A stretch of DNA of 64,000 bases from Candidatus Marinacidobacterales bacterium (GCA_965219415.1 CBDCNP010000002.1:2880001-2944000), one strand, 5' to 3'; counted from the first letter of the stretch, positions 1 through 21,797 are shown. The notes: generated from the sequence alone by a model not told the origin. Program-made: numbers and translations.

Positions 1-339
1 AGGAGGTCTTCGGGCAACTCTGGGATTACCGCACCGAACGCGGCGCTCGCGCCTTTTTCACTCGTTGGAAAGACAGCCTCAAATGGCAACGCCTGCATCC
101 GTACCAGAAGTTCGCCGGTATGATTGAGTCCCATTGGGATGGTATCGCCTCCTACTGTCATCCGGAGAACAAAGTCAGTCTCGGCCTAGTTGAAGGGGTC
201 AACAACAAAATCCGTGTTCTGCAACGACGCGCCTACGGCTATCGCGACGAGGAATATCTCAAGCTGAAGATCGTGGCGGCTTTCCTTCCGCCATTACCCA
301 GAAATGCAGTTTTCAACCCACACGAATCCGCGTAGACCC
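1..339 (+). mobile_element. ISL3-family insertion sequence, right part (transposase C-terminus 3..335 plus right end)
   Basis: The frame from position 3 reads EVFGQLWDY...HWDGIASY...VEGVNNKIRVLQRRAYGYRDEEYLKLKI, the typical ISL3 C-terminus. It ends at CCACACGAATCCGCGTAGACCC, which resembles an ISL3 terminal repeat. Confidence 0.88.
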
Positions 340-341
340 AG

Positions 342-494
342 AACTTCATCATTCTAATCATCGTCGAGTTGGACCTGGCCAAGTCCTTCGGCAAGGGGGT
401 GGGCTTCGCGATTGGGCTCATCCTGCTGGGCCCCATCTTCATCATGATCCTGGGGTTCGGTGACGCGAGGTATCAGGGTCCCGCCGCGGCGTAG
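342..494 (+). pseudogene. 3' remnant of a DUF5684-like small membrane protein, interrupted by the ISL3
   Basis: Not in the ORF track. Translates NFIILIIVELDLAKSFGKGVGFAIGLILLGPIFIMILGFGDARYQGPAAA*, starting immediately after the IS end. Confidence 0.7.
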
Positions 495-505
495 GGCGCC
501 CCTGC

Positions 506-1393
506 TCAAGTCGATGTAATCGCGAACTCGATCAAGATACCACCGACGAACTTGGTGGTAATCGTCCTGTCGTCCTGCGAATACGTGCGGGTCATGATTT
601 CCATGGAGCCTTGCTGCTCGGTGGCAGCCGTTCCCGCCGGCCCAAGGAGCCTCTCTACCTGCTGTAACGTCAACCCTTTCTTCAACTTGGTGACTTCGCG
701 CTCGGGAGGGTCGTTGGGCCGAGTCGTTTCGGTCGCGTCAGCGGCGGCCGGGATAGAAAGGTTTTCCTGAGCGGCGGGGAAGTCCACGAACTTGCTCAAG
801 GCCTCCACGATTCCATTAGGTGTGACTGCCTCCGGCGGAACGGCGTTGTGGTAACGGATGTTGAACCGGCTTCCCGACTGCGCTCGACGCGCCCGCTCGT
901 CGGCGGCTTGGGCTACTTTGGCCTGGGCGGACTGGGCGCTGGCCCAGGCGTTGTCCTGTCTCCGCTCCCGTCGAAGATCGTCTTGTTCGTCCTTGAGTTC
1001 CTTTCGCTTCTGAGGATCCGTTTCCCATTTCAGCTCTTGCTCTATGTTCTTTTCTCGTCTCGACTTCCCTTGGTTGTAGGAGCCAGATGAGTAGGTAGAG
1101 GCGCTCGCTAGGTTGTCGGCGAAGGTTCCGAAGCCACCACCTCCGAGCTGAAACTCGATATGCTTTTTCTTGATGTGCACCTTCGTCACCATGATGGATT
1201 GTCCCGCGTGGACTCCCGTGCCGTTGGTCTTGAGATTCTGCGCCAACTTGCGGAAATCGACCGGCATCGGCTCGTTAGGGTAGACGTCCACCCCGATTTG
1301 GCTGGCTGGCATGTCGAGCTTCACGACCACCGTCATGCCTTCGAAGTACTGGCGGAGGACGGATTCGCTCTGCGCTGAAGCGAAGCTCGACAC
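506..1393 (-). CDS. Hypothetical secreted protein with a coiled-coil and a C-terminal SmpA/BamE-like repeat; N-terminus apparently lost
   Basis: 295-aa ORF that begins at the tail of a signal peptide (VSSFASAQ). The C-terminal LKKGLTLQQVERLLGP motif is BamE-like. Confidence 0.6.
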   Translation of the reverse strand: MSSFASAQSESVLRQYFEGMTVVVKLDMPASQIGVDVYPNEPMPVDFRKLAQNLKTNGTGVHAGQSIMVTKVHIKKKHIEFQLGGGGFGTFADNLASASTYSSGSYNQGKSRREKNIEQELKWETDPQKRKELKDEQDDLRRERRQDNAWASAQSAQAKVAQAADERARRAQSGSRFNIRYHNAVPPEAVTPNGIVEALSKFVDFPAAQENLSIPAAADATETTRPNDPPEREVTKLKKGLTLQQVERLLGPAGTAATEQQGSMEIMTRTYSQDDRTITTKFVGGILIEFAITST

Positions 1394-1778
1394 CGACGAC
1401 TTGAACGCGATCCCCCAGCAAGGCCGTGCCGAGGTTCACGATCGATCCGCCACGCCGGCCGACCGCGGCTAGATAGTTATCTGTCCCGGTTCCTCCGGAG
1501 CTCTCCGTTAGCAGAACGATGGCTTCCTCGTGCCCGTCACCGTCCAGATCTCCTGTCAGCCGGAAGTCGCGGACGAGCCGCACCCTGGGACGAGACGCCA
1601 CCCCGGGAACGAAGGGCTCGCCTTCGAAGGAGCCGTTCTCGAGTTGTACTGCATGGTCGTAGATTCCTTGATAGGAACAGTTCGCAAGCTCATCCGGTGA
1701 AGGCGCTTCTGATTGTGCCAGAGCGAGACTGGCCGGGAACACTAGGATCGACAAGATTTGGATTCTAACGGCGATCAC
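1394..1778 (-). pseudogene. N-terminal part of a secreted protein of the type often fused to META domains, truncated at LGDRVQV
   Basis: Signal peptide, then GDLDGDGHEEAIVLLTESSGGTG...LGDRVQV, after which the frame runs out of phase into the downstream gene. Confidence 0.55.
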
Positions 1779-1956
1779 ATTCGTCTCCCGGAGTGATCAC
1801 GGAACCAGAACTAGAGAGAACTTCTTGAATGGCGGTTAATTTTCTGAGATGGGAATTCCTGGGAATCCTCTAGGGCAGAATATCAGAAGTGGAAAAAATG
1901 TTGGAGTCTCTGCTAGTCAAGGATGCAGAAGCGAGCGAGGCTTCCCAACGCCTATA

Positions 1957-2713
1957 TCAACGGCGCCACGTCAGCTCGAACTCGTAGGTATCCGCCCCGT
2001 TCTTGTCGTCCTCTATTCTCACTACCGCCGTGTAGTTATTCGAGGAGCTTGGGGCCTGAACGAGCTCCACCTCGCCCCGGCCGTCAATCTTGTGGAGCGA
2101 TACCGGCACCTCGCGTTCGGGAAGGGGAGACTGGAAGCGGGCGCGACGCTCCTGGGTCCCTTGACCACCCATGTCTTTCACGAGATGCTCGTCGCCGCGG
2201 ATCTCGATCTCGGCACCGATGTCGACGCGTCCTTCCCAACGGAAGACACCTTCTCGACGATTGTCGAAGTCGTCCCACTCATCGTCGTCATCCCAATCGT
2301 TGTTGTCCCAGTCATCCCAGTCATCGCGTCGCCAGACGAGCTCGAACTCATAGTAGTCGTCTCCCATCTGCTTCCCGTCGTCGAGTCGGACGACGGCTGT
2401 ATAGTCGTTCCACGAGCTCGGTTCCTCGATGAGCCGCACGTCTCCGCGCCCTTTGATCTTGTTGAGCTTGAGATGGATCTCGCGAGCTCGGGAGTGGCGC
2501 GCTGAACCGATGGTCCTGGCGCTGGATGGGCTTGGCTTCAATATGATTGATACGGATAGATTCGCCGCGGATCATAATCTCGTCCACGCCATCCACTTGT
2601 CCCCGCCACTGAAAACGCTCTTCCTTTGCGGTAGCTTCCGCAGGGACAGGTCCAGCGTCCATCCAGCAGCCGCTCACCAGCAAGAATTTCCCTAGAAAGA
2701 GTTTCGCATCCAT
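1957..2713 (-). CDS. Hypothetical secreted protein with two tandem beta-rich repeat domains, frameshifted near 2486
   Basis: ORFs 2348..2749 and 1957..2541 join into FxWxGxVD...F.SPLP.RE...GRG.V.L...PS..N.YTAVVR..D......YEFEL.W, present twice and separated by a D/W-rich linker. Confidence 0.7.
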
Positions 2714-2891
2714 CCTGATTTCTCCTTTACCACTATAGAACCACATCAAGGAGCCTGTCGCCAGGTCCCCGGCGCCTGGCTAGCCTGATTCTAGCCCCGC
2801 GCTATCTTGGCGCCTGAAGTGAGCTTCAGTACGGCCCTTGACGGGAGCGGGCTCACGGTTTAAAAGTGCTTCCGGACAGGAGGTATTCGGT

Positions 2892-4196
2892 ATGCAAAGG
2901 CTTACAAGCGTTCTGATCTTGGTGCTGTCGACGGCGGTGGGTGCGGCGGCACAATCAGGTGACTCCGACGTCAAGGCCATCGTGGGGGCCAACGTCGTGG
3001 ATATCGAAGGCGGGGAGCCGATCCGTGATGCGGTGGTGGTGATCGTGGACGAGCGGATTTCCGCCATTGGCCCGGCTTCGAGCACCCGGGTTCCGACCGG
3101 GGCGGAGGTGATCCATGCCGATGGTATGTGGCTCGTTCCCGGCCTCATGAACATGCACGTCCACTTCGGCCTGAAGCTGCCCGGGAAGATGGCGGCCGAA
3201 TTGGCCAATGAAAAGGACACCGAGCTCGCCCTCCGTGTGGCCGACAATGCTCGACAGTCGCTTTTGTCGGGCGTCACGACCATACGAAGCACCGGTGACA
3301 CGGGCGCCGCGTCGATTGCCCTCGATAAGGCGATCAAGAAGGGCCACGCCGTCGGGCCTCGCATCTGGAGCCCCAGCGACGCCGTGCCCATCTCCGGCGG
3401 CCATGGGGCGAGACATGGCAAAACCTACGATGGTCCTTACGAGCTCATGAAGGCGGTTAGAGAACGCGTGGCCGACGGGGCGAGCTGGATCAAGATAGCG
3501 ATTTCCGGAGGCATCGCGAGCCAAGGGGGCGCCATCGCGGAAGCCACCATGACGCCCGAGGAAATGGAAGCGGTGATCGATTCGGCCCACCGTTTCGGGC
3601 GCAAGGTAACTGCGCACTCCGGCTCCCCGCAGGCAACGTCAACGGCCGTCGACCTGGGCGTCGACTGCATCGAACATGGCTACTTTCTCGATCGTCCCAC
3701 GCTCGAGAAGATGAAGGCGAACGGTGTCTGGTTGGTGCCCACCATCGTGGTCAGTCAGCCGGCTACCGCGCCTTTCTTCGAGAAGATCGGTTCTCCCGAG
3801 TGGTATCTGAAGCGTCGGGACTCGGTCGGTAAGGATCATTGGAAGGCGCTCCAGACGGCGATTGAAGTCGGCGTCAACATCGGTCTGGGTACGGATCAAT
3901 TTCCTCATGAGCCGAACGATGGCACGACGGCCACCGTCCGTGAGGCTCAGTACTACGTCGAAGCGGGCATGACGCCGCTCCAAGCATTGCGGTCCGGGAC
4001 CATCGAAACGGCGAAGCTTCTCGGTGCCGAAAAAGACATCGGCTCCATCGAGGTCGGTAAGTACGCGGACATCCTGGCGGTGCCGAGGGATCCGACCGCG
4101 GACATCAAGGCTCTCCGCCAGATTCAGTTCGTGATGAAGGGCGGCGAGGTGTACCGCAACGACATGGCGGCCGGAGCTCGGGCTTCGGGCCGGTAG
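2892..4196 (+). CDS. Secreted metal-dependent amidohydrolase (prolidase/Xaa-Pro dipeptidase-like), copy 1
   Basis: Signal peptide; PGLMNMHVH, WIKI, VTAHS, CIEHG, GTD and GSIEVGKYAD motifs. Start placed at ATG 2892 after AGGAGG. Confidence 0.9.
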   Translation: MQRLTSVLILVLSTAVGAAAQSGDSDVKAIVGANVVDIEGGEPIRDAVVVIVDERISAIGPASSTRVPTGAEVIHADGMWLVPGLMNMHVHFGLKLPGKMAAELANEKDTELALRVADNARQSLLSGVTTIRSTGDTGAASIALDKAIKKGHAVGPRIWSPSDAVPISGGHGARHGKTYDGPYELMKAVRERVADGASWIKIAISGGIASQGGAIAEATMTPEEMEAVIDSAHRFGRKVTAHSGSPQATSTAVDLGVDCIEHGYFLDRPTLEKMKANGVWLVPTIVVSQPATAPFFEKIGSPEWYLKRRDSVGKDHWKALQTAIEVGVNIGLGTDQFPHEPNDGTTATVREAQYYVEAGMTPLQALRSGTIETAKLLGAEKDIGSIEVGKYADILAVPRDPTADIKALRQIQFVMKGGEVYRNDMAAGARASGR

Positions 4197-4216
4197 GTCG
4201 GTAAGGAAGTAATGAT

Positions 4217-5524
4217 ATGCGACAAATTCAGAACGCTCTGATTGGGCTGTCCGCGGCGCTTGCTTTATTGATGCCGCAGGCAGCGGAGTCTCAAGTAAAG
4301 GCCATTGTTGGCGCCAATGTCGTCGATCTCGATGGCGGGCCGGCGATCCGGGATGCCGTCGTCGTGATCGAAGGCGAGCGCATCTCCGCCCTCGGCCCAT
4401 CGGGAAGCGTACGCATTCCCTCGGGAGCGGAAGTCATTCCCGCCGATGGCATGTGGCTCACGCCTGGCCTCATGAACATGCACGTCCACTTCGCGCTGAT
4501 GCTGCCCGGCAAGATGCAAGCCGAGCTCGCCAACGAAAAGGAGACTGAGAAAGCACTCCGCGTCGCCCACAACGCGCGGCTATCTCTCCTTTCGGGTGTG
4601 ACCACGGTACGCCTCCCGGGAGATAAGCGCGAGACGGCGATCGCGCTCGATAAAGCCATCAAGAAGGGCCAGGCCGTGGGTCCGCGTATCTTCAGCGCCG
4701 GCGAATCGGTCCCTATCACCGCGGGACACGGTAGCCGCGGTGTAAGACGGACCTACGATGGGCCCAGCGAGCTCATCAAGGCGGTCCGTGAGCGGGTTAA
4801 TGCAGGGGCGAGCTGGATCAAGATTCTCATTTCCGGTGGCATCTCGACGCAAGGTGGCAACATTGCCGAGGCCACCATGACTCCAGGGGAGATGGAAGCC
4901 GTGATCGACGCCGCGCACCGGTTCGGGCGAAAAGTAACTGCACACTCCGGTTCTCCGCAGGCAACGTCAACAGCCGTCGACTTGGGCATTGACTGCATCG
5001 AACATGGGTATTTTCTCGATCGCCCCACGCTCGAGAAGATGAAGGCGAACGGTGTGTGGCTGGTGCCCACCATCGTCGTCAGCCAGCCAGCCACCGAGCC
5101 CTTCTTCAAGAAGATCGGTTCTCCCGAGTGGTATCTGAAGCGCCGGGACTCGGTGGGCAAGGAGCATTGGAAGGCGCTGCAGACGGCTATCGAGCTCGGG
5201 GTCAACATCGGTCTCGGTACGGATCAAATGCCTTATGAGCCCAACGCCGGGACAACCGCCACAATACGGGAGGTTCAGTACTACGCGGCGGCAGGGATGA
5301 CGCCGCTTCAGGCCTTGCGGGCGGGCACGATCGAGACGGCGAGAATGCTCGGTGCCGAAAAGGACATCGGCTCCATCGAGGTGGGCAAGTACGCGGACAT
5401 CCTGGCCGTCCCGAGTGATCCAACCGCGGACATCAAGGCGCTTCGTCAGATTCAGTTCGTGATGAAGGGCGGTGAGGTGTATCGCAACGACATGGTTACC
5501 GGAAGTCGACCTTCCGGCCAATAA
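4217..5524 (+). CDS. Secreted amidohydrolase, copy 2
   Basis: Same motifs (NMHVH, WIKI, AHS, EHG, GTD) and a signal peptide. Confidence 0.9.
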   Translation: MRQIQNALIGLSAALALLMPQAAESQVKAIVGANVVDLDGGPAIRDAVVVIEGERISALGPSGSVRIPSGAEVIPADGMWLTPGLMNMHVHFALMLPGKMQAELANEKETEKALRVAHNARLSLLSGVTTVRLPGDKRETAIALDKAIKKGQAVGPRIFSAGESVPITAGHGSRGVRRTYDGPSELIKAVRERVNAGASWIKILISGGISTQGGNIAEATMTPGEMEAVIDAAHRFGRKVTAHSGSPQATSTAVDLGIDCIEHGYFLDRPTLEKMKANGVWLVPTIVVSQPATEPFFKKIGSPEWYLKRRDSVGKEHWKALQTAIELGVNIGLGTDQMPYEPNAGTTATIREVQYYAAAGMTPLQALRAGTIETARMLGAEKDIGSIEVGKYADILAVPSDPTADIKALRQIQFVMKGGEVYRNDMVTGSRPSGQ

Positions 5525-5550
5525 GGAAGAGTAAGGTTAGGTATCAAAAG

Positions 5551-6855
5551 ATGCGACAAATTCAGAACGCTCTGATGGGGCTGTCTGCGGCGGCACTCGT
5601 GCTCTTGGCGCCGCAGACAGCGCAGTCTCAAGTGAAAGCGATCGTCGGCGCGAGCGTGGTGGATCTCGACGGCGGCCCCGCGATTCGAGATGCCGTCGTC
5701 GTCATCGATGGCGAGCGAATCTCCGCGATCGGTCCGTCGGGGAGTACGCGGGTTCCTTCGGGAGCGGAAGTGATCCGTGCCGACGGCATGTGGCTGCTTC
5801 CGGGCCTGATGAACATGCATCAGCACTTCGGGTTCATCCTTCCAGGCAAGATGCAGGCCGAGCTGGCGAACGAGAAAGATACCGAGCTGGCACTTCGCGT
5901 CGCCGACAATGCGCGCGGATCCCTTCTTGCCGGCGTGACTACGGTGCGGCCGCCCGGCGACAGTCGTTCGGCGGCGATTGCTCTCAAGAAGGCTATCGAC
6001 AAGGGGCAGGCCATCGGCCCGCGCATCTACAGTGCCGGTGAGGCAGTTCCCATTACCGCAGGCCACGGAGCCGGCGAAGTCACCTACGACGGTCCTTACG
6101 AGCTCATCAAGGCGGTTCGGGAGCGCGTCGCCGCCGGCGCTGTATGGATCAAGATCATGATCTCCGGAGGCATCGCGACCCAGAGCGGAGCGATCGGGAA
6201 AGCCACCATGACGCCGGAAGAGATGGGAGCGGTGATCGATGCCGCACACCGGTTCGGCAGGAAGGTTACTGCTCACTCCGGCTCCTCGCAAGCGACGACG
6301 ACGGCGGTCGAGTTGGGGATCGATTGCATCGAGCATGGTTACATGCTCGATCGCGAGACCCTGATGAAAATGAAGGAGCATGGTACGTGGCTGGTGCCGA
6401 CGATGGTAGTAACCCAGCCGGCCACACAACCGTTCTTCGAGAAGATCGGTTCCCCGGAGTGGTACCTCAAGCGGCGCGACTCGGTGGGCAAGGAGCACTG
6501 GAAGATGCTTCAAATGGCCATTGAGGTCGGAGTCAACATCGCGCTCGGCACCGACCAGCTTCCCCAAGAGCCCAACGATGGAACGATCGCAACGGTCCGG
6601 GAGGCCGAATACTACGTGGCGGCGGGGATGACGCCGCTTCAAGCATTGCGATCCGGCACCATCGAAACGGCCAAGCTTCTCGATGCCGACAGTGACATCG
6701 GCTCCATCGAAGTCGGCAAGTACGCCGACATCTTGGCGGTGCCGAGCGATCCGACGGCGAACATCAAAGCCCTCCGTCAGATTCAGTTCGTGATGAAGGG
6801 CGGCGAGGTGTACCGCAACGACATGGCTACCGGCGGTCGGGCCTCGGGGCGATAA
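5551..6855 (+). CDS. Secreted amidohydrolase, copy 3
   Basis: NMHQH variant; other metal ligands conserved. Confidence 0.9.
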   Translation: MRQIQNALMGLSAAALVLLAPQTAQSQVKAIVGASVVDLDGGPAIRDAVVVIDGERISAIGPSGSTRVPSGAEVIRADGMWLLPGLMNMHQHFGFILPGKMQAELANEKDTELALRVADNARGSLLAGVTTVRPPGDSRSAAIALKKAIDKGQAIGPRIYSAGEAVPITAGHGAGEVTYDGPYELIKAVRERVAAGAVWIKIMISGGIATQSGAIGKATMTPEEMGAVIDAAHRFGRKVTAHSGSSQATTTAVELGIDCIEHGYMLDRETLMKMKEHGTWLVPTMVVTQPATQPFFEKIGSPEWYLKRRDSVGKEHWKMLQMAIEVGVNIALGTDQLPQEPNDGTIATVREAEYYVAAGMTPLQALRSGTIETAKLLDADSDIGSIEVGKYADILAVPSDPTANIKALRQIQFVMKGGEVYRNDMATGGRASGR

Positions 6856-6868
6856 AGGGGGCACAACG

Positions 6869-8179
6869 ATGCGACGAATTCAGAACGTTTTGTCAATTTT
6901 CACAGCGGCGGCACTCGGGTTCTTGGCCCCGCAAACGGCGCAGTCTCAGGTGAAGGCGATCGTGGGCGCGACCGTGGTCGATCTCGACGGCGGAGCGCCG
7001 ATTCGAGACGCCGTCGTCGTCATCGATGGCGAGCGAATCTCCGCCATCGGTCCGTCGGGGAGTACGCGGGTTCCCTCTGGGGCGGAAGTGATTCGTGCCG
7101 ACGGCATGTGGCTCGTTCCCGGTCTGATGAACATGCACCATCACTTTGGTTACATGATGCCCGGCCCGATGACCGCTGAGCTGAGGAATGAGAAGAATAC
7201 CGAGCTGGTACTCCGCGTCGCCGACAACGCTCGACAAGCTCTACTCTCGGGAGTGACGACGGTAAGGCCTCCCGGCGATCGGCGCGAGGCTGCCATCGCA
7301 CTCAAGAAAGCCATCGACAAGGGCCAGGCGATCGGTCCCCGTATTTTCAGCGCCGGCGAAGCGATCCCTATCACCGCGGGTCACGGCAGCAACCACGTCA
7401 GGAGGACCTACGACGGGCCCGACGAGTTAACCGAGGCGGTCCGCAGCCGCGTCGCCGCCGGGGCGGTCTGGATCAAGATCATGGTTTCCGGAGGCATTGC
7501 CACTACTGGCGGCGATATCTCGGAAGCGCTCATGACGCCCGAGGAGATCGAAGCGGTCATCGACTCTGCCCATCGTTTCGGACGAAAGGTGACCGCCCAC
7601 TCCGGCTCGCCGAAGGCGACGATGACCGCGGTCGACTTGGGGATCGATTGCATCGAGCACGGCTACATGCTCAATCGTGAAGCCCTCGTCAAGATGAAAG
7701 AGAACGATGTCTGGCTCGTCCCGACAATGGTGGTTACACAGCCCGAGACGGACCCGCTCCACGAGACGTTCGATTTGCCGGCTTGGTACGTGGCGCGACG
7801 CGAGGCGGTCGGGAAGCTTCACCTCAAGGCGATCCAGATGGCCATCGAGGAGGGCGTCAACATTGCTCTGGGGACAGACTTCCTACCCGCAGAGCCCGCC
7901 AACGGAACCACCGTCACAGTGGTCGAGGCCGAGCTTTACGTCAAGGCGGGGATGACGTCGCTTCAGGCGTTGAGAGCAGCGACCATCGAGCCGGCGAGGC
8001 TTCTCGAAGCCGAAGAGGACATCGGTTCACTCGAGATCGGCAAGTACGCGGATATTCTTGCGGTGCCGAATGATCCCACGAAGGACATTTCGACTCTTCG
8101 CCAAATTCAGTTCGTGATGAAGGGCGGCGAGGTGTACCGCAACGACATGGCTACCGGAAGTCGGGCTTCCGACCAATAG
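6869..8179 (+). CDS. Secreted amidohydrolase, copy 4
   Basis: NMHHH and GTDFLP variants. Confidence 0.9.
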   Translation: MRRIQNVLSIFTAAALGFLAPQTAQSQVKAIVGATVVDLDGGAPIRDAVVVIDGERISAIGPSGSTRVPSGAEVIRADGMWLVPGLMNMHHHFGYMMPGPMTAELRNEKNTELVLRVADNARQALLSGVTTVRPPGDRREAAIALKKAIDKGQAIGPRIFSAGEAIPITAGHGSNHVRRTYDGPDELTEAVRSRVAAGAVWIKIMVSGGIATTGGDISEALMTPEEIEAVIDSAHRFGRKVTAHSGSPKATMTAVDLGIDCIEHGYMLNREALVKMKENDVWLVPTMVVTQPETDPLHETFDLPAWYVARREAVGKLHLKAIQMAIEEGVNIALGTDFLPAEPANGTTVTVVEAELYVKAGMTSLQALRAATIEPARLLEAEEDIGSLEIGKYADILAVPNDPTKDISTLRQIQFVMKGGEVYRNDMATGSRASDQ

Positions 8180-8203
8180 AGTAAAGTAAGGCTGGTGATT
8201 CGA

Positions 8204-9511
8204 ATGCGACAAGTTCAGAAAACTCTAATCGGGTTATTTGTGGCGGCAGTTGTTTTCTTGGCGCCGCATACTGCGCAGTCTCAAGTGAAGGCGATCGTCG
8301 GCGCGAGCATAGTCGATCTCGACCGCGGCTCCGCGGTCGGGGATGGCGTGGTGGTGATCGAAGGAGAGCGAATCTCTGCGATCGGCCCGTCGGGCAGCAC
8401 GCGTATTCCGGCGGGCGCGGAAGTCATTCGCGCCAACGGCATGTGGCTCGTTCCCGGCCTCATGAACATGCACACGCACCTCGGTGTCATCATGGCGGCG
8501 CAGAAGGCGGAACTGGCCAATGAAAAGACGACGGAGTTGGCCCTGCGGGTCGCCGCCAATGGGCGCAAAGTTCTCTTGTCGGGCGTGACGACGATTCGAT
8601 CACCCGGTGACAGGAAGGGTGCGGCTCTGGCTCTCAAGAAGGCGATCGCCAAGGGTCAAGCGGAGGGGCCGCGCATCTTCAGCGCGGGCGCGGGGCTGCC
8701 GATCACGGCTGGGCACGGCAGCGACAGTGGCGCGGAGACGTATGATGGTCCTTATGAGCTCATCAAGGCGGTCCGCAGTCGGGTTGCCGATGGGGCGGTT
8801 TGGATCAAGATCTTCACGTCCGGCGGCATCTCGACTCCGGGGGGTGACATTTCCGAGGCCCTGATGACGCCCGAGGAGATCGAAGCGGTGATCGACGCCG
8901 CCCATCGTTTCGGTCGAAAGGTGACCGCGCATTCGGGCTCTTCGAAAGCGACGAGTCTGGCGGTCGACGCGGGCATCGACTGCATCGAACACGGCTATAT
9001 GGTCGACCGTGAGACCCTATTAAAGATGAAGGCGAATGGCGTTTGGCTTGTTCCAACCATCACCGTGACTCAGCCGGCGAGCACACCCTTCTTCGAACAG
9101 CAAGGACCTCCTGCGTGGTACATGGCTCGCCGCGAAACAGTGGGAATAACGCATTGGCAGGCTCTCCGGACGGCGATCGCGGAAGGGCTCGACATCGCTC
9201 TGGGCACGGACTTCCTACCCTCGGAGCCGATCGATGGTACAACGGCCACCATCCGGGAGATCGAATACTACGTGGCGGCGGGGATGACACCGACTCAAGC
9301 CTTGCGAAGCGCGACAATCGAAACCGCTAAGCTTCTCGACGCCGATAAGGACATCGGTTCACTCGAAGTCGGCAAGTACGCGGACATCTTGGCGATGCCG
9401 AGCGATCCCACCAAAGACATCTCCGCCCTTCGCGAGATTCAGTTCGTGATGAAGGGGGGGACCGTCTACCGTAACGACATCGGCGGCGGGAGTCGAGCTT
9501 CCGGACGATAG
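8204..9511 (+). CDS. Secreted amidohydrolase, copy 5
   Basis: NMHTH and GTDFLP variants. Start MRQVQK chosen by alignment with the paralogs. Confidence 0.9.
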   Translation: MRQVQKTLIGLFVAAVVFLAPHTAQSQVKAIVGASIVDLDRGSAVGDGVVVIEGERISAIGPSGSTRIPAGAEVIRANGMWLVPGLMNMHTHLGVIMAAQKAELANEKTTELALRVAANGRKVLLSGVTTIRSPGDRKGAALALKKAIAKGQAEGPRIFSAGAGLPITAGHGSDSGAETYDGPYELIKAVRSRVADGAVWIKIFTSGGISTPGGDISEALMTPEEIEAVIDAAHRFGRKVTAHSGSSKATSLAVDAGIDCIEHGYMVDRETLLKMKANGVWLVPTITVTQPASTPFFEQQGPPAWYMARRETVGITHWQALRTAIAEGLDIALGTDFLPSEPIDGTTATIREIEYYVAAGMTPTQALRSATIETAKLLDADKDIGSLEVGKYADILAMPSDPTKDISALREIQFVMKGGTVYRNDIGGGSRASGR

Positions 9512-9519
9512 GCATCGCA

Positions 9520-10800
9520 GTGCGACAAATTCAGAATGTTCTGCCCGTCTTGTTTGTGGCAGCGCTCGGGTTCTTGGCGCCGCAGACGGCGCACCCTCAA
9601 GCAAAGGCCATCGTGGGGGGGAGCGTGGTGAGCCTCGACGGTGCAGCTCCCATCCAAGACGCCGTCGTGGTGATCGAAGGCGAACGAATCGCAGCGATGG
9701 GACCCGCGGGGAGCACGCGAGTTCCCACGGGGGCGGAAGTCATTCGTGCCGACGGCATGTGGCTCATTCCCGGCCTCGTCAATATGCACGTACACCTCGG
9801 CCTGGCATTGCCTGGCAAGGTGGCTACCGAGCTGGCCAACGAGACGGATACCGAGCTCGCTCTTCGTGTTGCGGATAACGCTCGTCAATCCCTGCTCTCC
9901 GGCGTGACCACCATACGGACGCCCGGGGATCGCCGAGCCGCGGCGATTGCGCTCGACAAGGCGGTCCAGAAAGGCCAAGCGGTGGGCCCGCGCATTTTCA
10001 GTGCCAGCGAGACTGTTGTGATCACCGGCCGTGGCTCCGGCCGTAGCGAAACCTATGACGGGCCCTACGAGCTCATCAAAGCCGTCCGTAGTCGAGTCCG
10101 CGACGGAGCCAGTTGGATCAAGATCGCGATCTCCGGCGGCATCGCTAGCCAAGGCGGAGCCATCGCGGAATCCATCATGACGCCTTCGGAGATCGAAGCG
10201 GTGATCGATGCCGCCCATCGTTTCGGCAGAAAAGTAACGGCACACTCCGGCTCGCCTCAAGCGACGAGCGTCGCCGTGGATGCGGGGGTCGATTGCATCG
10301 AGCACGGTTACCACCTCAATCGCGAGGTCTTGGTCAAGATGAAAGACAACGGGACCTGGCTGGTTCCCACCATCGTCGTGAGCCAACCGGCGACTGCACC
10401 TTTCTTCGAAAGGATTGGCTCTCCCGATTGGTATCTCGAGCGCTTGGCTTCAGTAGGAACAGATCATTGGAAGTCGCTTCAAATGGCCATCGAAGTGGGT
10501 GTCAACATCGCGCTCGGAACGGATCAATTCCCCTATGAGCCCAACGACGGAACGACCGCCACGGTGCGAGAAGCCGAATACTACGTGGCGGCGGGGATGA
10601 CGCCGACTCAAGCTCTACGCAGCGCGACTACCGAAACTGCCAAGCTTCTCGATGCCGATAAGGACATCGGCTCACTCGAAGTCGGCAAGTACGCGGATAT
10701 TCTTGCCGTGCCGAGCGATCCCACTAAAGACATCTCGGCCCTCCGCGAGATTCGGCTCGTCATGAAGGGTGGAACCGTCTACCGCAACGACATGCGTTAG
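9520..10800 (+). CDS. Secreted amidohydrolase, copy 6
   Basis: GTG start; NMHVH; the GHG loop is replaced by GRG. Confidence 0.9.
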   Translation: MRQIQNVLPVLFVAALGFLAPQTAHPQAKAIVGGSVVSLDGAAPIQDAVVVIEGERIAAMGPAGSTRVPTGAEVIRADGMWLIPGLVNMHVHLGLALPGKVATELANETDTELALRVADNARQSLLSGVTTIRTPGDRRAAAIALDKAVQKGQAVGPRIFSASETVVITGRGSGRSETYDGPYELIKAVRSRVRDGASWIKIAISGGIASQGGAIAESIMTPSEIEAVIDAAHRFGRKVTAHSGSPQATSVAVDAGVDCIEHGYHLNREVLVKMKDNGTWLVPTIVVSQPATAPFFERIGSPDWYLERLASVGTDHWKSLQMAIEVGVNIALGTDQFPYEPNDGTTATVREAEYYVAAGMTPTQALRSATTETAKLLDADKDIGSLEVGKYADILAVPSDPTKDISALREIRLVMKGGTVYRNDMR

Positions 10801-11987
10801 GGTTTGCGTGGCTTGGCGGTTCTGGAAGACGACCCACCCCCCGAAGAGTATCCTTTGGAGGTCGCGCTACCGCCTGACGAGGACGACGAGCCTTTAGACC
10901 TTGTCGAGCTTGCCGAAGAAGAGCCCTCTCGGGACCCCGAGCTCCCAAACGCCCCACCCCCACTGGTTCGGCCGACCCGTGTGTAGCCGCGACCCTTGAC
11001 GAGTCGCCCGCCGGCGATGCCTTGGTCGGGGATCCCGACCGGTCTCCGCACGTAGAAGGTGTCATAGGGCGTATACCAGTAGTAGTAACCGAAGGGGGCG
11101 AAGAAGAAACTGCTCCAGTAGTTGTAGCTTTGACCGAAACCCGCGCCTCCGCCCCCGTAGCTGCGGCCTTGGGTCTCCCGGGAGACCTCGAAGCGGTGGG
11201 GATAGGCGAGTGCCACCATTAAGTCGATCGTCTCGGGGGAGATGCCGGAATCCGCGAGTTGAACGAGCGTCTTGCCGTTCAAGTCGAAGGTGGAGCCACT
11301 CTCCACCAAAGCCGCCTCGACCGCCGCGGAGTCGATCTTGTTGCTCGCTTCGGCGAGATCGTCGATGGTGAGAGGCCTCGATATCGCCGCTCGCGCCGCC
11401 GTAACCGCGGTCGCCGTCTCGGGTGGCACTTCCTCGAATCCCAGCTTGCTCACCGCTTCCGATGGAGCGGGTCGGTAGCGCCGTATGACGACCTCGCGCC
11501 CGCTTCCGCCATCGAGCGCCTGTATGTCGACCCACGTGTTCCAGCGTCTAAAGAAACTCACCCCAGTGAAACTCTGTTGTTTCCCCGCCTTGCAGCTCAT
11601 TTCGGAACGCAGGAACAAGAGCGCCTGGTTCTTGGACCACTCGGTAACTTGATGACCGCTGCAGTCCGAGACCGCGAACGGGCGGCGGAGTCCGTCGGCG
11701 TACAAGGTCTCCTCCAAGAGTAGCTCGCCATCTGCGTAGGTGCTTAGTTTTGCTTCTCCCTCCGCGCCCGGGGTGACGCACACCAGCTGCTCGTCGGTGA
11801 CGCGATATTCTTTTTCGCTGGCCCCTTCGAGGACAGCCGGAAGCTTCACGACGTCGGCTACCAACTGCCAACAGCCGAGCCATGGCAACCAGGGGGAATC
11901 GGCAGAGTCTTTCGCCGGCTGCGCGAACGCCGTCGATGAAGTTGCGCAAAGCAACGCCGTAACCAGTGCAAGCTGTCGGAAGCTCAT
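10797..11987 (-). CDS. Hypothetical secreted protein with an aromatic-rich segment and a Gly/Ser-rich tail
   Basis: Start MSFRQLALV after a GAGG RBS; signal peptide; PWLPWLGCW motif; low-complexity C-terminus. Confidence 0.7.
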   Translation of the reverse strand: MSFRQLALVTALLCATSSTAFAQPAKDSADSPWLPWLGCWQLVADVVKLPAVLEGASEKEYRVTDEQLVCVTPGAEGEAKLSTYADGELLLEETLYADGLRRPFAVSDCSGHQVTEWSKNQALLFLRSEMSCKAGKQQSFTGVSFFRRWNTWVDIQALDGGSGREVVIRRYRPAPSEAVSKLGFEEVPPETATAVTAARAAISRPLTIDDLAEASNKIDSAAVEAALVESGSTFDLNGKTLVQLADSGISPETIDLMVALAYPHRFEVSRETQGRSYGGGGAGFGQSYNYWSSFFFAPFGYYYWYTPYDTFYVRRPVGIPDQGIAGGRLVKGRGYTRVGRTSGGGAFGSSGSREGSSSASSTRSKGSSSSSGGSATSKGYSSGGGSSSRTAKPRKP

Positions 11988-12001
11988 GGTCTTATCCTCT
12001 C

Positions 12002-12754
12002 TCAATTGAATATCCAGTATATCCCGGCCGTAACACCGAATCCTGTTAGGTCGATGGGATCGAAACCAATGAAGTCGTCCTTCAGCTTCGCATCGACCCA
12101 GGCGTAGCGGCCCTCGACGGTCAGGAACATCTTGCGGCTGAGCTTTACGTCGACCCCGCCCAAAACGTGCACCGTCGGGGCCCATCCACTCGACGTGAGC
12201 ATGGCCTCGAAGATGGACAGATCGTCGAAATCGACGAACTCACCAAACTGTTCGAACTTGTACCATTGAAGTCCGACTCCGGCGCCCACGTAGGGAGCGG
12301 CGCTCCTCGCCACCCAAGCATAGCGGCTTACCTCGTGTCCGCGCGGCACGAGATAAAACTTCGCACTAGCGGTCAAAGGAAACTGCGTGAGCGTGGTCTT
12401 CTGGACGATGGGGAGATCGTCGGTGCCCACGAAATCGCGGAACTCCGACGTCGTCGAAGAGCGGCTGTACTCGAATCCGAAGACGACGTCGAGGCGCTCT
12501 TTCAGCACTAAGGCGAAATCGACGCCGAGCGTCGGGGCATCGAAATCGCCGTCGCCCACAGTGAGCAGCTCGCGAGTGAAGTCGAAGAGGTCGCTCTCGG
12601 CTCTGGCTAGGCTCCAACCGGCGCGGAAGCCCGCCGAGAATCGGGGTGCGCCAAAGAGAAAATCGGGTTCCTGGGTCGCTGGCGGAGTGGCACTGACCTC
12701 CACGCCAACCAGGGACACGCCGGCAAGTACAAGGGCGACGAGGTTTTTTTGCAT
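12002..12754 (-). CDS. Outer-membrane beta-barrel protein (OmpW/OmpA-TM-like)
   Basis: Signal peptide, alternating amphipathic strands (PYVGAGVG, VEGRYAW) and a terminal aromatic motif (GIYWIFN). Confidence 0.78.
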   Translation of the reverse strand: MQKNLVALVLAGVSLVGVEVSATPPATQEPDFLFGAPRFSAGFRAGWSLARAESDLFDFTRELLTVGDGDFDAPTLGVDFALVLKERLDVVFGFEYSRSSTTSEFRDFVGTDDLPIVQKTTLTQFPLTASAKFYLVPRGHEVSRYAWVARSAAPYVGAGVGLQWYKFEQFGEFVDFDDLSIFEAMLTSSGWAPTVHVLGGVDVKLSRKMFLTVEGRYAWVDAKLKDDFIGFDPIDLTGFGVTAGIYWIFN

Positions 12755-12912
12755 GTCTTCTCATCACCCGTACGGGGGGAACGGGTTCGTTAGGCCCATC
12801 TTCCCACTTATGGTCGGCCCAGACAAATCGGGACCGGACGGATTCTTTCCCGAAATCGGACACCGGGCACGGTCTTCTTCGTGTGAAGGCGTGACTCTTG
12901 GGCGCATACCGG

Positions 12913-12928
12913 TGGCATACGTTTTGCT
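12913..12928 (+). promoter_or_regulatory. Sigma54 -24/-12 promoter
   Basis: TGGCATACGTTTTGCT has exact GG-N10-GC spacing and lies just upstream of the permease. Confidence 0.7.
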
Positions 12929-12944
12929 CCTATTATTGTCCGAC

Positions 12945-14448
12945 ATGATTCAAGACCTCTCGGTCGCGTTTCGAGTTCTCCGGAAACGACCCGGCGCCAG
13001 TGCCGTCGTCATCTTGATCCTGGCGTTGGGCATCGCCGTCAACGCCACGTTTTTTACTTTTTTCAACGGGATGATTCTTCATCCCTTGCCGTTCGAGGAT
13101 GCGGAGAGGCTCGTCTATTTGAGTGAGTCGCAACCGAAGCTCGGCAAGAGCCGGCAAGAGATCTCGGGGCCCAATCTGCAAGACTGGCAGGAAGAAAGCA
13201 GTGTTTTCGCGGCCATCGCACCGTACGCGAATCGAAGCTTCAACCTTCATACCGAAGAGGACCCCGAGCGGGTCCGAGGCACCAGGATCTCGGCTTCCTT
13301 GTTCCCGCTGCTCGGTGTCGAACCCATCTTAGGCCGCAACTTCACCGAGGAAGACGACCGGCCCGGAGCGGCCGAGGTAGCGCTCATCAGTCACACGATG
13401 TGGCAAAGACGTTTCGACGCCGATCCCGCCGTTTTGGGGCGCACGGTTCATTTGAACGAGCGGGTACACGAAGTCGTGGGGGTGATGCCGCCTGGATTCC
13501 GCTTCGAGAACTTTTCCGAGGTCTGGACACCGTTGAGGCTCGCTCCGCAAGACACCGCTCGCGACAATCGTTGGCTTGCCGCGATCGCGCGACTGAAACC
13601 CGGCGTGACAGCCGAAGAGGCACAGCTCGAGATGGAACTCATCGGAGAGCGACTCGAGGGCCGTTACCCGGAGACGAACACGGGCTGGAACGTGCGAGTG
13701 CGCCCCCTCCGCGATGCTTGGCTTCCCCCGGTCACGCAGTTGAGCTCCTACATCCAGCAGGTGGCGGTGTTCTTCGTCCTTCTCATCGTGTGCGCCAACG
13801 TCGCCAATCTCATGTTGGCGCAAGCGACGGCACGTCGTCAGGAGACCGCACTTCGCGCCGCACTCGGCGCGGGCCGCACACGTCTGATGCCGCAATTCCT
13901 CACTGAGAGCACCCTACTCGCCATCACTGCGGGCGTCGTGGGAACGATCCTGGCTCTTTGGGGAGTCGTTTGGGTCAAGGAGCTCGTACTCGTTCCCATT
14001 CCGTATTGGCTTCATTTCGAGCTCGACGCTGCCACGCTTGCCTACTCGGTCCTCGTCACCCTGAGCGTCGGCTTGGCGTTCGGACTGGTTCCGGCGCTTC
14101 GCGGAACCGGCGGCGATCTCCACCATGCCCTCAAGTCGGGAGGAGGCGGACGGGCCGATGACGGCGCAAGCGGTAACCGCCTACGGAGTCTACTCGTCGT
14201 CTCACAGTTTGCGATGTCGCTCGTTCTTTTAGTTGGCGCGCTGATGATGGTCAAGAGCATCGTTCGCATACAGAACGTGGACGTGGGGTACGAAACCGAG
14301 AGGGTTCTCACGTTGCGGTTGTCCTTGACGGGCGAGTCGTACCGTGAGTCGGGTCGGCGAGGTCGATTCTTGAATGACGCGCTCGAGAGGATTTCGAGCA
14401 TCAGCACGGTGGATGCGGTGGGCGGAGTGAACTATCTACCGTCGAGTT
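12945..14448 (+). pseudogene. ADOP/MacB-FtsX-type ABC permease, 3'-truncated by IS5
   Basis: QDLSVAFRVLRKRPG...LALGIAVNA, LIVCANVANL...R..E.ALR.ALGAGR and LVVSQFAMSLVLLVGA. Ends abruptly after NYLP at the IS end. Confidence 0.88.
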
Positions 14449-15420
14449 GCCTTGGTGCACAACTCCGATAGAGGCCGAGAGCTCGCTTGGCCCCGACTCC
14501 CATCATCCGATCATCTCGGTATCAGGCATCCCGAGCGCCGTCATGGTGTTGAGAATCTTGCACCCGATCCTTGCCTCACCTCTCTGTGCCGCCAACCCTC
14601 TCGCTCGCATCGCTGAGCCCACGATAGCCTTGTAGCGATGGAACGTTGTCTCGACTTTGCTCCGTTTGCTGTAGCCCGATTCTGTGTGCCACTTTCGTTT
14701 GCCGAGCCGAGCTTGTGCTGCAATGTTGCGATTGCGCTGTCGGCTGCTCGCCGGCCCCGATGCGAGCAGGGCGCCCTTGCGCGGCGGTATCAGCACCCTC
14801 GGCGAGCGATGAGCGCTGTGATTCTCGATTGCCTCATAGACGCCGCCGGCGTCGTATGCGGTGTCAGCTCTGGCCGATGAGATGGGACTGTCGATCTGTC
14901 CGACAAGCGATGCAACCCGCGATGAATCGCGGGCTCTTTTGCTCGTCAGCTCGCCGGCGACGACTTCGCCACTCTGCTCGTCGACACACAGATGGAGCTT
15001 GCGATAGTCCCTGCTCTTTTGTGCTCTGCGCAGCTGGCCGGCGTGGACAGCGAGACCGCTGCTGTCGAACAAGATGTGCAACGGCGTCTTCTGCTTGACT
15101 GGGTAGAAGGGGACCTTACCCAGCTTCGGCTTGCGCCTCGAGATCGTGGTGTGATCGGGCACATCATTGTCTAGCTTCATCAGAGCGAACAACGACCGCA
15201 GCAATCCCTCGCTCTGCCTAGATGACAGATGAAACACCATGCCCAGGGTGACAGCCGTCTCGATGGCGTGGTTCGAGTATTTGCGTTGACGGCCCGGTTT
15301 CCTCCTCCTTGGCCGGGGCGCGTCCCAGTTCACAAGCTTGCCGGCGGTGAGCGAGATCCAGACGGTCAGGCTCCCGCGGTTGCGTAGACCCGCCTCATAT
15401 TCACGCCAATTCCTCACCTT
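14449..15420 (-). mobile_element. IS5-family (IS903-group) element, 5'-truncated; transposase 14503..15417
   Basis: NWREYEAGLRNRGSLT, PDHTTISRR, DSSGL, RKLHL, ADTAYD, GYSKRSKVET motifs. Terminal GCCTTGGTGCA at 14449. The left end and start are missing. Confidence 0.88.
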
Positions 15421-16600
15421 TTAGGACTTCCCCCAAGCCATCCATGTCCATGTCCATATCCATATCCGTCCCCACGGTTGCCGGCGATTTGGCCTCAGGC
15501 TGGGCCTTCCCAGGCTCCGGCGCGGCGGCTGGCTCGTAGATCTCGGCAGGCTGGGCAGGCTGGGCGGTGGAATCCTCACCGACGTCCGAGGATACGATCG
15601 GTTCCGCTGCGATAGGCGGCGAGTCGAGCGAGGGGAGCGCTACGGTCTGTTCGTTGAATTGGGGAAACGCAGGCTCACACTCCCAGGGCTGGGCGCCTCC
15701 ACTTCCTGTACCGGCTGTCCTGGCGCGGCTTCCACGATGGGCTCGACCATGGCGGGAAGTGGAGCGGGCTCAGCGTCACCCGCTGGCGATTCCTGTGAAG
15801 ACTCCGGCTTTGGGGCGGGAGCGGCTTCGGTCTTGTCCCACTGATCCAATAACGAAGCGCCATCGTCCTCGACCGCCTCCACCCAACCCAACGAGCGAAA
15901 CGCCCACGATTAGCTTGCACACATCCAACTCTTTGAGCGAGGATTCGGTGCAGGCTTCCGTCACACCTTTGGGCCGCCTGAGCATGGCGAGAAGCTCGAG
16001 CGCCGGAGTCTCCAGCTCGATGGAACGAAGAGATCCTTCGGTCCCGGAAACTGCCTGGTACGTGGAGTCAAGATCGCCGATGCCCCGTGATATGCGCCAC
16101 CAACTATCGATCTCACGGATTCCATCCACGATGAGCTGGGGGGTAGGCATGTCCAAGGTGATCGTCTCCTTGCTCGGAAGGTCTTGAGCCACGAACTCGT
16201 AGTGCGCCTTAGTCCAGTTGAAAAGACTCAAGATGATGGAGCGCACTTGGCCGACAACCGACTTAACGAGCTCTTTCGGATCCAAGTATCCGCTTTCGAC
16301 CAGCAGCGCGCCAAGCCGCTTGCCCGGCTTGATTAGTTTGCTAGCAGCTTCGAGATCTTTGAGTCCGACGCGCCCACTCCGCAGTAAGTACTCACCTAAG
16401 CGATCATCGATGGCAGAGGACTTGGCGAAAACGAAGGCGCCGTCCCGCACGAACAGAGTCTTTTCTGCCTGCGGATTGGAGAAGCTCAATAGACCCGTCC
16501 CCTTGGTTTCGCAGACGGCTAGGAGGATATCGGGCAGATCGTAGTCTGCGGTCGAGCTTTCGAACTCTCCCTGGAGAGGGATTTCCGTGCGGACTGGCAC
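15421..16600 (-). CDS. DUF4388 domain protein with a Pro/Ala/Glu-rich tail, frameshifted (about 15907 and 15690)
   Basis: LPDILL...GTGLL...KTLFVRDG..FAKSS..DDRLGEYLL, RLGALLVE, LFNW...YEF. The frame continues as WAFRSLGWVE after an indel. Confidence 0.8.
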
Positions 16601-20707: not shown

Positions 20708-21793
20708 ATGACTTTCCGTGTTCTCGCATTGTCCATGCTCGCGGCGGGACTCGTCCTGTCCGGTGCGATCCCTGTGTCTGCTCAAGAGTGGCCGGCCAGC
20801 CCGGTCCGCTATACGGAAGCCAAGGAGTATCCGGTCCATCGCCTGATCGAGCTCCCCGGATCGGTCGAGTCGCGTACCGAAAGCTTGGTGGCCAGCGAAG
20901 TAGCCGGCCTGGTCGTTGAGCTTGCGGCCCGTGAAGGACAAACGGTACGCAAAGGCGAGACCCTCGCCAAGCTCCGAAGCGATCAGCTGGAGTTACAGCT
21001 CCAGGCCGCGGAGGCCGAGCTCCGCGAGGCGGAAGCGCGTCGGACGCAGGCAGAGAGTAATCTGGAGCGCTCCAAAGATCTCTTCGACTCCGAAGTGCTG
21101 TCCCAACGACAGCTCGACGAGGCCATTTCTGAATTCGATGCATGGCGCGGGCGGACGGAGCGCCTCACCGTCATGATTGCCCGCATCAAGCTCGACATCG
21201 AGCGCTCGGCTGTACGAGCGCCCTTCGCGGGCGTCATCGTCGCCGAACGGTGCGAGGTCGGAGAATGGGTCGACAAGGGAGATCCGGTGGTCGAGCTCAT
21301 CTCACTCTACGACCTCGAAGTTCGGGTCGATGTTCCGGAGCGTTACTTCAGCAACATGAACCCGGGGGCCGAGGCGACCGTCCGCTTCGAATCCTTACCG
21401 GGATACGAGTTGACCGGAAAGGTGAGCGCCATTGTTCCCCGAGCCAACGCTCGGTCCCGAACCTTCCCGCTCAAGATCCGCATTAAGAATAAGGATGGGA
21501 AGGTGGGCGCGGGGATGCTGGCCAAAGTGTCATTTCCCGCTGGAGAGTCCTACTCCGCCACCGTCGTTCCCAAGGATGCGGTCATCACACGGGGAGCAGA
21601 ACGCTACGTCTACCTCGTCAACGGAGACAGCACCGTGAGTCAGGTATCCGTCGAGACCGGTGTCGCCATGGGCCCCTGGGTCGAGATTCAGAGCGAGGTG
21701 AGGCCGGGTGCGAAGGTCGTCACCCGCGGGAACGAGCGCTTGCAGCCGGGGCAGAGAGTCCAAGGCGAGCCACTAGAGTACGCTCTGCCATAG
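20708..21793 (+). CDS. RND efflux periplasmic adaptor (MFP)
   Basis: VASEVAG..EGQTVRKG, VRAPFAG, SRTF and VVPKDAV motifs. Confidence 0.92.
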   Translation: MTFRVLALSMLAAGLVLSGAIPVSAQEWPASPVRYTEAKEYPVHRLIELPGSVESRTESLVASEVAGLVVELAAREGQTVRKGETLAKLRSDQLELQLQAAEAELREAEARRTQAESNLERSKDLFDSEVLSQRQLDEAISEFDAWRGRTERLTVMIARIKLDIERSAVRAPFAGVIVAERCEVGEWVDKGDPVVELISLYDLEVRVDVPERYFSNMNPGAEATVRFESLPGYELTGKVSAIVPRANARSRTFPLKIRIKNKDGKVGAGMLAKVSFPAGESYSATVVPKDAVITRGAERYVYLVNGDSTVSQVSVETGVAMGPWVEIQSEVRPGAKVVTRGNERLQPGQRVQGEPLEYALP

Positions 21794-21797
21794 TGCC

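Follow-up and report, generated by a model that had tools for sequence, protein, structure and literature searches.

The 64,000-nucleotide stretch analysed here (the window, G000:C3:2880001-2944000) comes from a bacterium of the order Ca. Marinacidobacterales, placed in the Vicinamibacteria, Acidobacteriota, and belongs to a genome assembly of 8.05 Mb (3 contigs; completeness 96%, contamination 8.5%). Between window positions 2892 and 10800 lie six head-to-tail open reading frames (ORFs) on the + strand, each encoding one amidohydrolase paralogue (genes A–F, Table 1), separated by spacers of 20, 26, 13, 24 and 8 nt, most of which contain a purine-rich stretch resembling a ribosome-binding site. 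The ORF coordinates confirm the six intact tandem paralogues of 426–436 amino acids (aa), 8–26 bp apart, that had been described in an earlier note on this DNA, and pairwise protein identity among the six copies is 67–82%. The array is predicted to form a single transcription unit, as its genes share one strand with 8–26 nt spacers, follow a single conserved promoter-like block, and are enclosed between a divergently oriented upstream neighbour and a convergent gene on the downstream side. Only about 55 nt upstream of the array are common to the window and its two congeners, genomes G001 and G002, a stretch containing both the promoter-like block and the Shine-Dalgarno sequence; further upstream, the G002 DNA is unrelated to that of the window. 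A scan for consensus promoters and terminators gave no signal above chance and did not report the conserved TTGACG/TAAAAG block, and of three terminator-like sites (7.1 expected by chance) the sole one on the + strand falls inside gene D. An Rfam scan of window positions 1–16000 returned 0 matches, and among 24 sequencing runs listed none was an RNA run. Directly upstream of the promoter-like block, an insertion of about 60 nt (window about 2772–2831) is present in the window and absent from G001 and G002. At the other end, the stop codon of the convergent gene overlaps that of gene F, and its product, 78–86% identical in G001/G002, has no Pfam match. The six-gene unit itself includes no transporter and no regulator.

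Table 1. The amidohydrolase array, its upstream signals and flanking features, in window coordinates
Feature	Position	Strand	Remarks
Gene A (copy 1)	2892-4196	+	434 aa; FGLKLPG after HxH
Gene B (copy 2)	4217-5524	+	435 aa; FALMLPG; orthologues at position 3 in G001 and G002
Gene C (copy 3)	5551-6855	+	434 aa; HQH, FGFILPG; orthologues at position 2 in G001 and G002
Gene D (copy 4)	6869-8179	+	436 aa; HHH, FGYMMPG, GTDFL
Gene E (copy 5)	8204-9511	+	435 aa from ATG 8204, or 438 aa from GTG 8195; LGVIMAA, GTDFL
Gene F (copy 6)	9520-10800	+	426 aa, GTG start; LGLALPG
Promoter-like block TTGACG, 17 nt, TAAAAG	2838-2866	+	putative promoter
Shine-Dalgarno AGGAGG of gene A	2878-2883	+	kept in three genomes
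Divergent conserved gene upstream of array	1957-2541	-	
Convergent gene, downstream boundary of array	10797-11987	-	signal peptide, long Gly/Ser/Tyr-rich C-terminal tail
ISL3 transposase fragment	3-335		
MacB/FtsX-type permease	12387-14471		
IS4/IS5-type DDE transposase	14503-15417		
RND (resistance-nodulation-division) efflux pair, HlyD-like and AcrB-like	20708-24980		

All six proteins match the Pfam family Amidohydro_1 (PF01979) with 140–154 bits against a cut-off of 25 (E 1e-41 to 1e-45), and an AlphaFold model with a predicted local distance difference test score (pLDDT) of 89 and a predicted template modelling score (pTM) of 0.87 comprises a (beta/alpha)8 barrel and a small beta-sandwich domain. 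The HxH motif after strand 1, the bridging Lys after strand 4, the His residues after strands 5 and 6 and the Asp after strand 8 are invariant, and these metal-ligand columns remain so in the six window copies, in the 18 array genes of the three species and in 50 members of the subfamily; the full complement of ligands (HxH, K, H, H, D) ascribed earlier to every copy is indeed present, as would befit six catalytically competent enzymes. The closest solved relatives by sequence are 2qs8 (E 2e-55) and 3mtw (E 1e-52), and Foldseek places the model on 3mtw (template modelling score, TM, 0.85/0.91), 2qs8, 9kov, 3n2c, 3be7, 8ihs and 4c5y, with TM values to solved members of 0.77–0.91. On these grounds the family assignment is secure, while the substrate assignment is not.

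Every N-terminus combines a basic residue with a hydrophobic stretch of 12 residues (mean Kyte-Doolittle value 2.1–3.1), and a small-x-small site precedes the mature domain; neither a lipobox Cys nor a twin-Arg consensus was seen in the six N-termini by inspection and hydropathy. This agrees with the signal peptide that the earlier note had assigned to every copy, and the six proteins are presumably Sec-exported. A hydrophobic N-terminus is also found in 95 of 97 close database relatives; the four single-copy homologues from the sister family (L004, L006, L007, L009; 63–68% identical) seem to begin at the first beta-strand, without a signal peptide. Acquisition of the signal peptide by the array after duplication was considered and rejected on account of those 95 relatives, these four singles being the only ones that appear to do without it. 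The genome encodes 71 full-length ORFs of the cog1228 type, arranged as 44 single genes, six pairs, three triples and one sextet, and by a crude test the N-terminus is hydrophobic in 59 of them. Close paralogues are clustered only in the sextet, the other clusters consisting of two or three distant family members (e.g., C3:426913-440989, C3:965805-971637 and C3:4006621-4045467).

A survey of array length in 40 relatives, of a kind the earlier note had suggested, found six tandem copies at the syntenic locus of both congeners, the window locus being collinear with theirs over 10–11.7 kb, flanks included, at about 84% DNA identity. Five genomes from other genera of the same family (completeness 73–96%) gave no match at E<=1e-60, and in the sister family one close full-length copy (63–68% identical) was found in each of six genomes from four genera. 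A maximum-likelihood tree (IQ-TREE) of 24 rows, comprising the 18 array genes, four single-copy outgroups, a distant paralogue from the same genome as root and a truncated copy described below, resolved six orthogroups, each with one gene from G000, G001 and G002 and support of 99–100, in which F branches first and D and E, and likewise A and B, form pairs. When the tree was widened to 141 rows, the six array groups constituted one clade, supported by a Shimodaira-Hasegawa-like approximate likelihood ratio test (SH-aLRT) value of 86, whose sister is a small clade containing a protein labelled Vicinamibacteria, with the sister-family singles next. Additional database proteins nest inside one or another orthogroup; a single 7.07 Mb contig, for example, carries members of D, E and F. 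Six orthogroups shared by three species within a single array clade imply that the duplications took place within this lineage and predate the sampled species. Nucleotide identity is 84–92% between orthologues and 70–81% between paralogues.

The subfamily extends far beyond these genomes, more than 2,200 database proteins matching it at E<=1e-50 among 8,000 candidates scored. Among 79 genome loci encoding relatives, six copies occur only at the G001 locus and two copies at five loci, and among 33 metagenome loci one short contig holds three copies in a row, the others carrying a single close-subfamily copy, accompanied in five cases by a distant (26–29% identical) family member nearby. Close matches were present in 2 of 400 further genomes of the phylum, in a search that scored the four best candidates per genome and gave no copy numbers.

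Several rearranged or partial forms of the array were also observed. Gene order is A-B-C-D-E-F in the window and A-C-B-D-E-F in both congeners; two neighbouring paralogues have thus changed places while none of the six types is missing, and exact public contigs cross the A|B and B|C junctions of the window. The metagenome contig with three copies (L093, 4.3 kb) carries genes whose best matches are, in succession, A (88%), C (92%) and E (94%). It represents either a shortened variant of the array from which B and D are missing, or a chimera of short reads formed across the similar gene ends. Finally, a truncated seventh copy of the A type lies about 1.08 Mb away (G000:C3:3962632-3963444; L125:3633-4445). 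At about 90% DNA identity, it takes in the promoter-like block, the Shine-Dalgarno sequence and some 245 codons from the gene start, ends just past the strand-5 His motif, and is adjoined by a transposase of the IS256/Mutator family, with genes of insertion sequence (IS) type upstream. A loose contig end of sequencing run X2 at window position 3627 coincides with the breakpoint of this truncated copy.

Pairwise comparisons by the Nei-Gojobori method point to the constraints under which the copies have evolved. All 18 orthologue pairs show a ratio of nonsynonymous to synonymous divergence (dN/dS) of 0.065–0.148 at dS 0.27–0.69, and for the 15 paralogue pairs of the window it is 0.09–0.20 at dS 0.9–1.7, near synonymous saturation. 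By these ratios, every copy is held by purifying selection. The proportion of synonymous differences between paralogues (pS) is about 0.6–0.68 across the barrel and still 0.63 at residues 222–251, where the protein is invariant; because pS there stays high, this invariance reflects selection, and gene conversion as the origin of the invariant core was ruled out. At both gene ends pS drops to 0.41–0.53, and a few 150-nt segments have a paralogue as their nearest neighbour, which suggests limited gene conversion near the junctions.

The copies differ from one another in a non-uniform manner. Following the HxH motif, genes A to F read FGLKLPG, FALMLPG, FGFILPG, FGYMMPG, LGVIMAA and LGLALPG, and further copy-specific motifs, in the same order, are KI-A/L/M/M/F/A and GTD-QF/QM/QL/FL/FL/QF, all three sets reading as the earlier note had given them. 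The alignment has 412 columns, of which 182 are invariant and 175 show variation inside some orthogroup; the remaining 55 are diagnostic, i.e., fixed within each orthogroup and different between orthogroups. Catalytic-face loops, delimited from barrel strand end to next helix by DSSP of one predicted model rather than by three-dimensional distances, make up 101 of the 398 residues from 27 to 424 and contain 26 of the 53 diagnostic sites in that range (odds ratio 3.5, Fisher p 5e-5), whereas sites variable within orthogroups are not enriched there (odds ratio 0.89, p 0.64). The densest diagnostic runs are residues 92–100 after HxH (8/9) and 286–301 after strand 7 (8/16). Between paralogues, dN is 0.246 in these loops and 0.150 elsewhere, and between orthologues it is 0.036 and 0.050, respectively, so that loops change faster than the remainder of the protein between paralogues but more slowly between orthologues. 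Diagnostic variation is thus concentrated in the catalytic-face loops rather than evenly spread, as had been proposed. The accompanying notion of a diversified 'library' goes too far, since each copy has stayed fixed and conserved, with the loops changing most slowly of all between orthologues.

A comparison with 101 outgroup sequences (97 database relatives and the four singles), in which 238 positions are at least 90% conserved, was used to count copy-specific changes. Fixed departures from the conserved residue number 30 in E, 27 in D, 22 in C, 16 in A, and 14 each in B and F, and 34 of the 63 positions affected fall in catalytic-face loops. Gene F resembles the outgroup most in most loops. 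At the GHG loop, kept in A–E and containing a His that is at least 90% conserved in the subfamily, F reads ITGR-G/A-S, a His to Arg change plus a one-residue deletion found in all three species. Work on relatives indicates which elements are likely to contact the substrate. In ochratoxinase (AnOTA), His191, His287 and His289 face the substrate carboxylate and Val253, Val332, Ile333 and Leu355 form the side-chain pocket, according to a passage of a study (PMC11342369) which also notes that near-superimposable members of the cog1228 group differ greatly in specificity; in PmAcy/3MKV, H162 is the oxyanion-hole residue and Y255 binds the alpha-carboxylate (PMC10781821); and residues named for MbAmh1 are His202, Val264, Leu265 and His300 (PMC12147602). 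When these positions are mapped onto the array proteins by residue spacing from the metal ligands, rather than by superposed coordinates, the pocket equivalents that differ between copies are the GHG loop, positions +7/+8 from the Lys, and the stretch after strand 7 (about 25 residues past the strand-6 His).

Taken together, these observations favour, at a probability of roughly 0.68, a reading in which one operon encodes a fixed panel of exported binuclear-metal amide or peptide hydrolases with diverged specificities. The six enzymes would be made from one transcription unit, exported by the Sec pathway, and belong to the cog1228 / MEROPS M38 group that takes in Cc2672, the Sgx prolidases and carboxypeptidases, and ochratoxinase. 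One ancestral exported gene would have been duplicated in tandem in this lineage of Vicinamibacteria, well before the divergence of the three sampled species, after which purifying selection would have retained each copy. Copy-distinguishing changes fall preferentially in loops that follow the barrel strands at their C-terminal ends, the elements from which the substrate pocket is built in solved relatives, so that the copies most likely cut amide bonds of differing substrates. Peptides and N-acyl amino acids that vary in their side chains are plausible candidates, and jointly the six enzymes would widen the range of organic nitrogen that can be cleaved outside the cytoplasm. The earlier suggestion of an operon of differing specificities accordingly retains its evolutionary side, in the six orthogroups of three species, the purifying selection and the loop-focused diagnostic sites; its biochemical side is a prediction from sequence.

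Several points weigh against this interpretation. Paralogue dN/dS is just 0.09–0.20, and positive selection is not evident in the pairwise comparison; of the 53 diagnostic sites, 27 are found away from the loops, some of them on helices near residues 140–145, 310–322 and 347–355; and the loop boundaries themselves derive from DSSP of a single predicted model. As for function, the best solved relative is 32% identical, and the proteins score 264–290 bits against the NCBIfam equivalog NF051886 (Caulobacter-type Xaa-Pro dipeptidase), below its cut-off of 500, which by sequence makes that enzyme a relative of the array proteins and not the same enzyme. Gene F probably lacks the oxyanion-hole His, if spacing correctly identifies the equivalent of H162. 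Finally, the position +2 from the strand-5 His is an invariant Gly (motif H-S-G-S) in the six copies and in all 50 aligned sequences. In relatives this position binds the substrate carboxylate, by means of a Tyr in PmAcy/3MKV (PMC10781821) or a His in AnOTA (in a passage of PMC11342369) and MbAmh1 (PMC12147602), and with Gly in place of Tyr or His the analogy to carboxypeptidases or dipeptidases may fail.

This last point lends some substance to a tentative alternative, which has perhaps the best claim after the peptide reading and is nonetheless improbable, namely that specificities do differ while the substrates are other amides, ureas, carbamates or natural products without a free alpha-carboxylate. 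Besides the Gly found throughout the subfamily at the carboxylate-binding position, the structural neighbourhood also takes in molinate hydrolase and phenylurea hydrolase, and metallohydrolases that cleave bile salts (described in part of PMC13081902). Conversely, the nearest solved relatives by both sequence and fold are dipeptidases or carboxypeptidases, the presumed oxyanion His is retained in five of the six copies, and COG1228 enrichment in an acidobacterium was linked to growth on protein in a passage of its genome paper (PMC4644332).

The fixed panel of separately acting enzymes must also be weighed against the idea, already raised in the earlier note and in our view unlikely, that the six proteins are subunits of mixed hetero-oligomers (e.g., mixed octamers), their combinatorial assembly being the functional unit. 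Characterised relatives are homo-octamers or a dodecamer, as stated in part of PMC11511702, AnOTA is a D4 octamer (a passage of PMC11342369), and many solved entries contain 8 chains. The copies, encoded by one predicted operon and bound for the same predicted compartment, are similar enough at 67–82% identity that cross-assembly would be the default unless interfaces have diverged, judging from general knowledge of paralogue heteromers. Moreover, all six are kept together in three species, but such co-retention is equally expected of separate enzymes. All six also have a full metal site and none resembles a degenerate scaffold subunit, while the A-like, C and E genes on the metagenome contig L093 would, if real, argue against an obligatory six-part complex. 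The more specific proposal that paralogues derived from a homo-octamer co-assemble into mixed oligomers with active sites differing by subunit, and that this explains their joint retention, is somewhat more doubtful still; if true, the mixed oligomer would be a natural combinatorial hydrolase particle of multiple specificities.

Retention of redundant copies for dosage of the same enzyme is quite improbable. Tandem amplification for dosage is common in bacteria, as is generally known, and catalytic residues are kept in all copies. Dosage arrays are, however, expected to be young, near-identical and unstable, whereas the paralogues here are near synonymous saturation (dS 0.9–1.7), each forms an orthogroup of its own that is conserved in three species, and copy-specific residues have been fixed at positions that are at least 90% conserved in the 101 relatives, pocket loops included.

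The copy number itself has support from assemblies other than that of the window. Contigs from four public runs, belonging to four studies, together cover 30 of 30 bins of window positions 2500–11300, with the qualification that one of these runs may be the source of the window, so that the runs are not all independent. Contigs with 0 differences from runs X1 and X2 (two studies) cross junctions 1|2, 2|3 and 5|6, and a contig from run X7 with 12 differing bases spans junctions 4|5 and 5|6; among the public contigs listed, no single one spans the whole array. In run X10, one contig (depth 5.4) links window position 5594 (the start of gene C) to 6999 (early gene D) with 31 other letters between, a joint that reflects either a strain variant or a graph artefact, and a few further low-depth joints were seen among the public contigs. 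Repeat mis-assembly that inflated or reordered the copies would accommodate these joints and the missing full-length contig, but can practically be dismissed given copies 19–30% apart in DNA, bridged junctions, coverage in four runs, and six copies at the syntenic locus of two other assemblies, one of them a 6.3 Mb single contig. The six-copy count of the earlier note therefore stands, and neither mis-assembly nor recent amplification accounts for the array.

The locus can be regarded as a natural series, in which one scaffold exists in six long-constant versions whose differences are focused on pocket loops. As such it would offer a compact system for studying the way in which specificity is written into amidohydrolase loops, and the means by which tandem copies of an enzyme that forms oligomers avoid cross-assembly or turn it to use. 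The subfamily is widespread and predicted to be exported, and its substrates would bear on organic nitrogen use by Vicinamibacteria.

Among known systems, the nearest by fold is Cc2672 of Caulobacter crescentus (PDB 3MTW), a cog1228 dipeptidase or carboxypeptidase acting on L-Xaa-L-Arg/Lys. It shares with the array proteins the two-domain amidohydrolase fold (TM 0.85/0.91, 32% identity), the same six metal-site residues and a GGH-type histidine loop, but is a single gene and has a His where they have Gly two residues past the strand-5 His. The environmental Sgx enzymes (2QS8, 3BE7/3DUG, 3MKV, 3N2C/3FEQ), which include dipeptidases, an Arg carboxypeptidase, and Xaa-Pro and N-acyl-Pro hydrolases, have the same fold and metal centre. 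Their subunits are near-superimposable, yet their specificities diverge strongly and are set by elements around the pocket (as described in a passage of PMC11342369), the very principle invoked here for the six copies; unlike these, they are 26–32% identical to the array proteins, come from unrelated genomes rather than from one operon, and several are octameric (according to part of PMC11511702). AnOTA (4C5Y) and the bacterial ADH3-type amidohydrolases (8IHQ/8IHS) occupy the same subfamily neighbourhood and hydrolyse N-acyl-Phe amides, yet at 27–30% identity, and with their His+2 carboxylate ligand missing from the array proteins, they do not imply ochratoxin activity for the latter. In the genome paper on Pyrinomonas methylaliphatogenes, a higher count of COG1228 amidohydrolases is linked to growth on proteinaceous media, in a passage that mentions neither a tandem array nor copy-by-copy conservation (PMC4644332); G000, for comparison, has the 71 COG1228-type ORFs noted above. 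The earlier note knew of no described array of this kind, and our literature searches for such an array and for the order name likewise found no description of this locus, although a smaller precedent qualifies the claim. The bile salt hydrolases of Bilophila wadsworthia, as portrayed in part of PMC13081902, are metal-dependent enzymes of the amidohydrolase superfamily with Sec signal peptides, encoded by two or three tandem or colocalised paralogues; they differ from the array in being multidomain proteins of about 945 aa with about 51% mutual identity, in adjoining a type II secretion system, and in belonging to a different branch of the superfamily. The amidohydrolase superfamily is well known, and it is familiar that genes duplicated in tandem go on to specialise; what is new here is the six-fold arrangement, conserved copy by copy, together with the uncharacterised subfamily.

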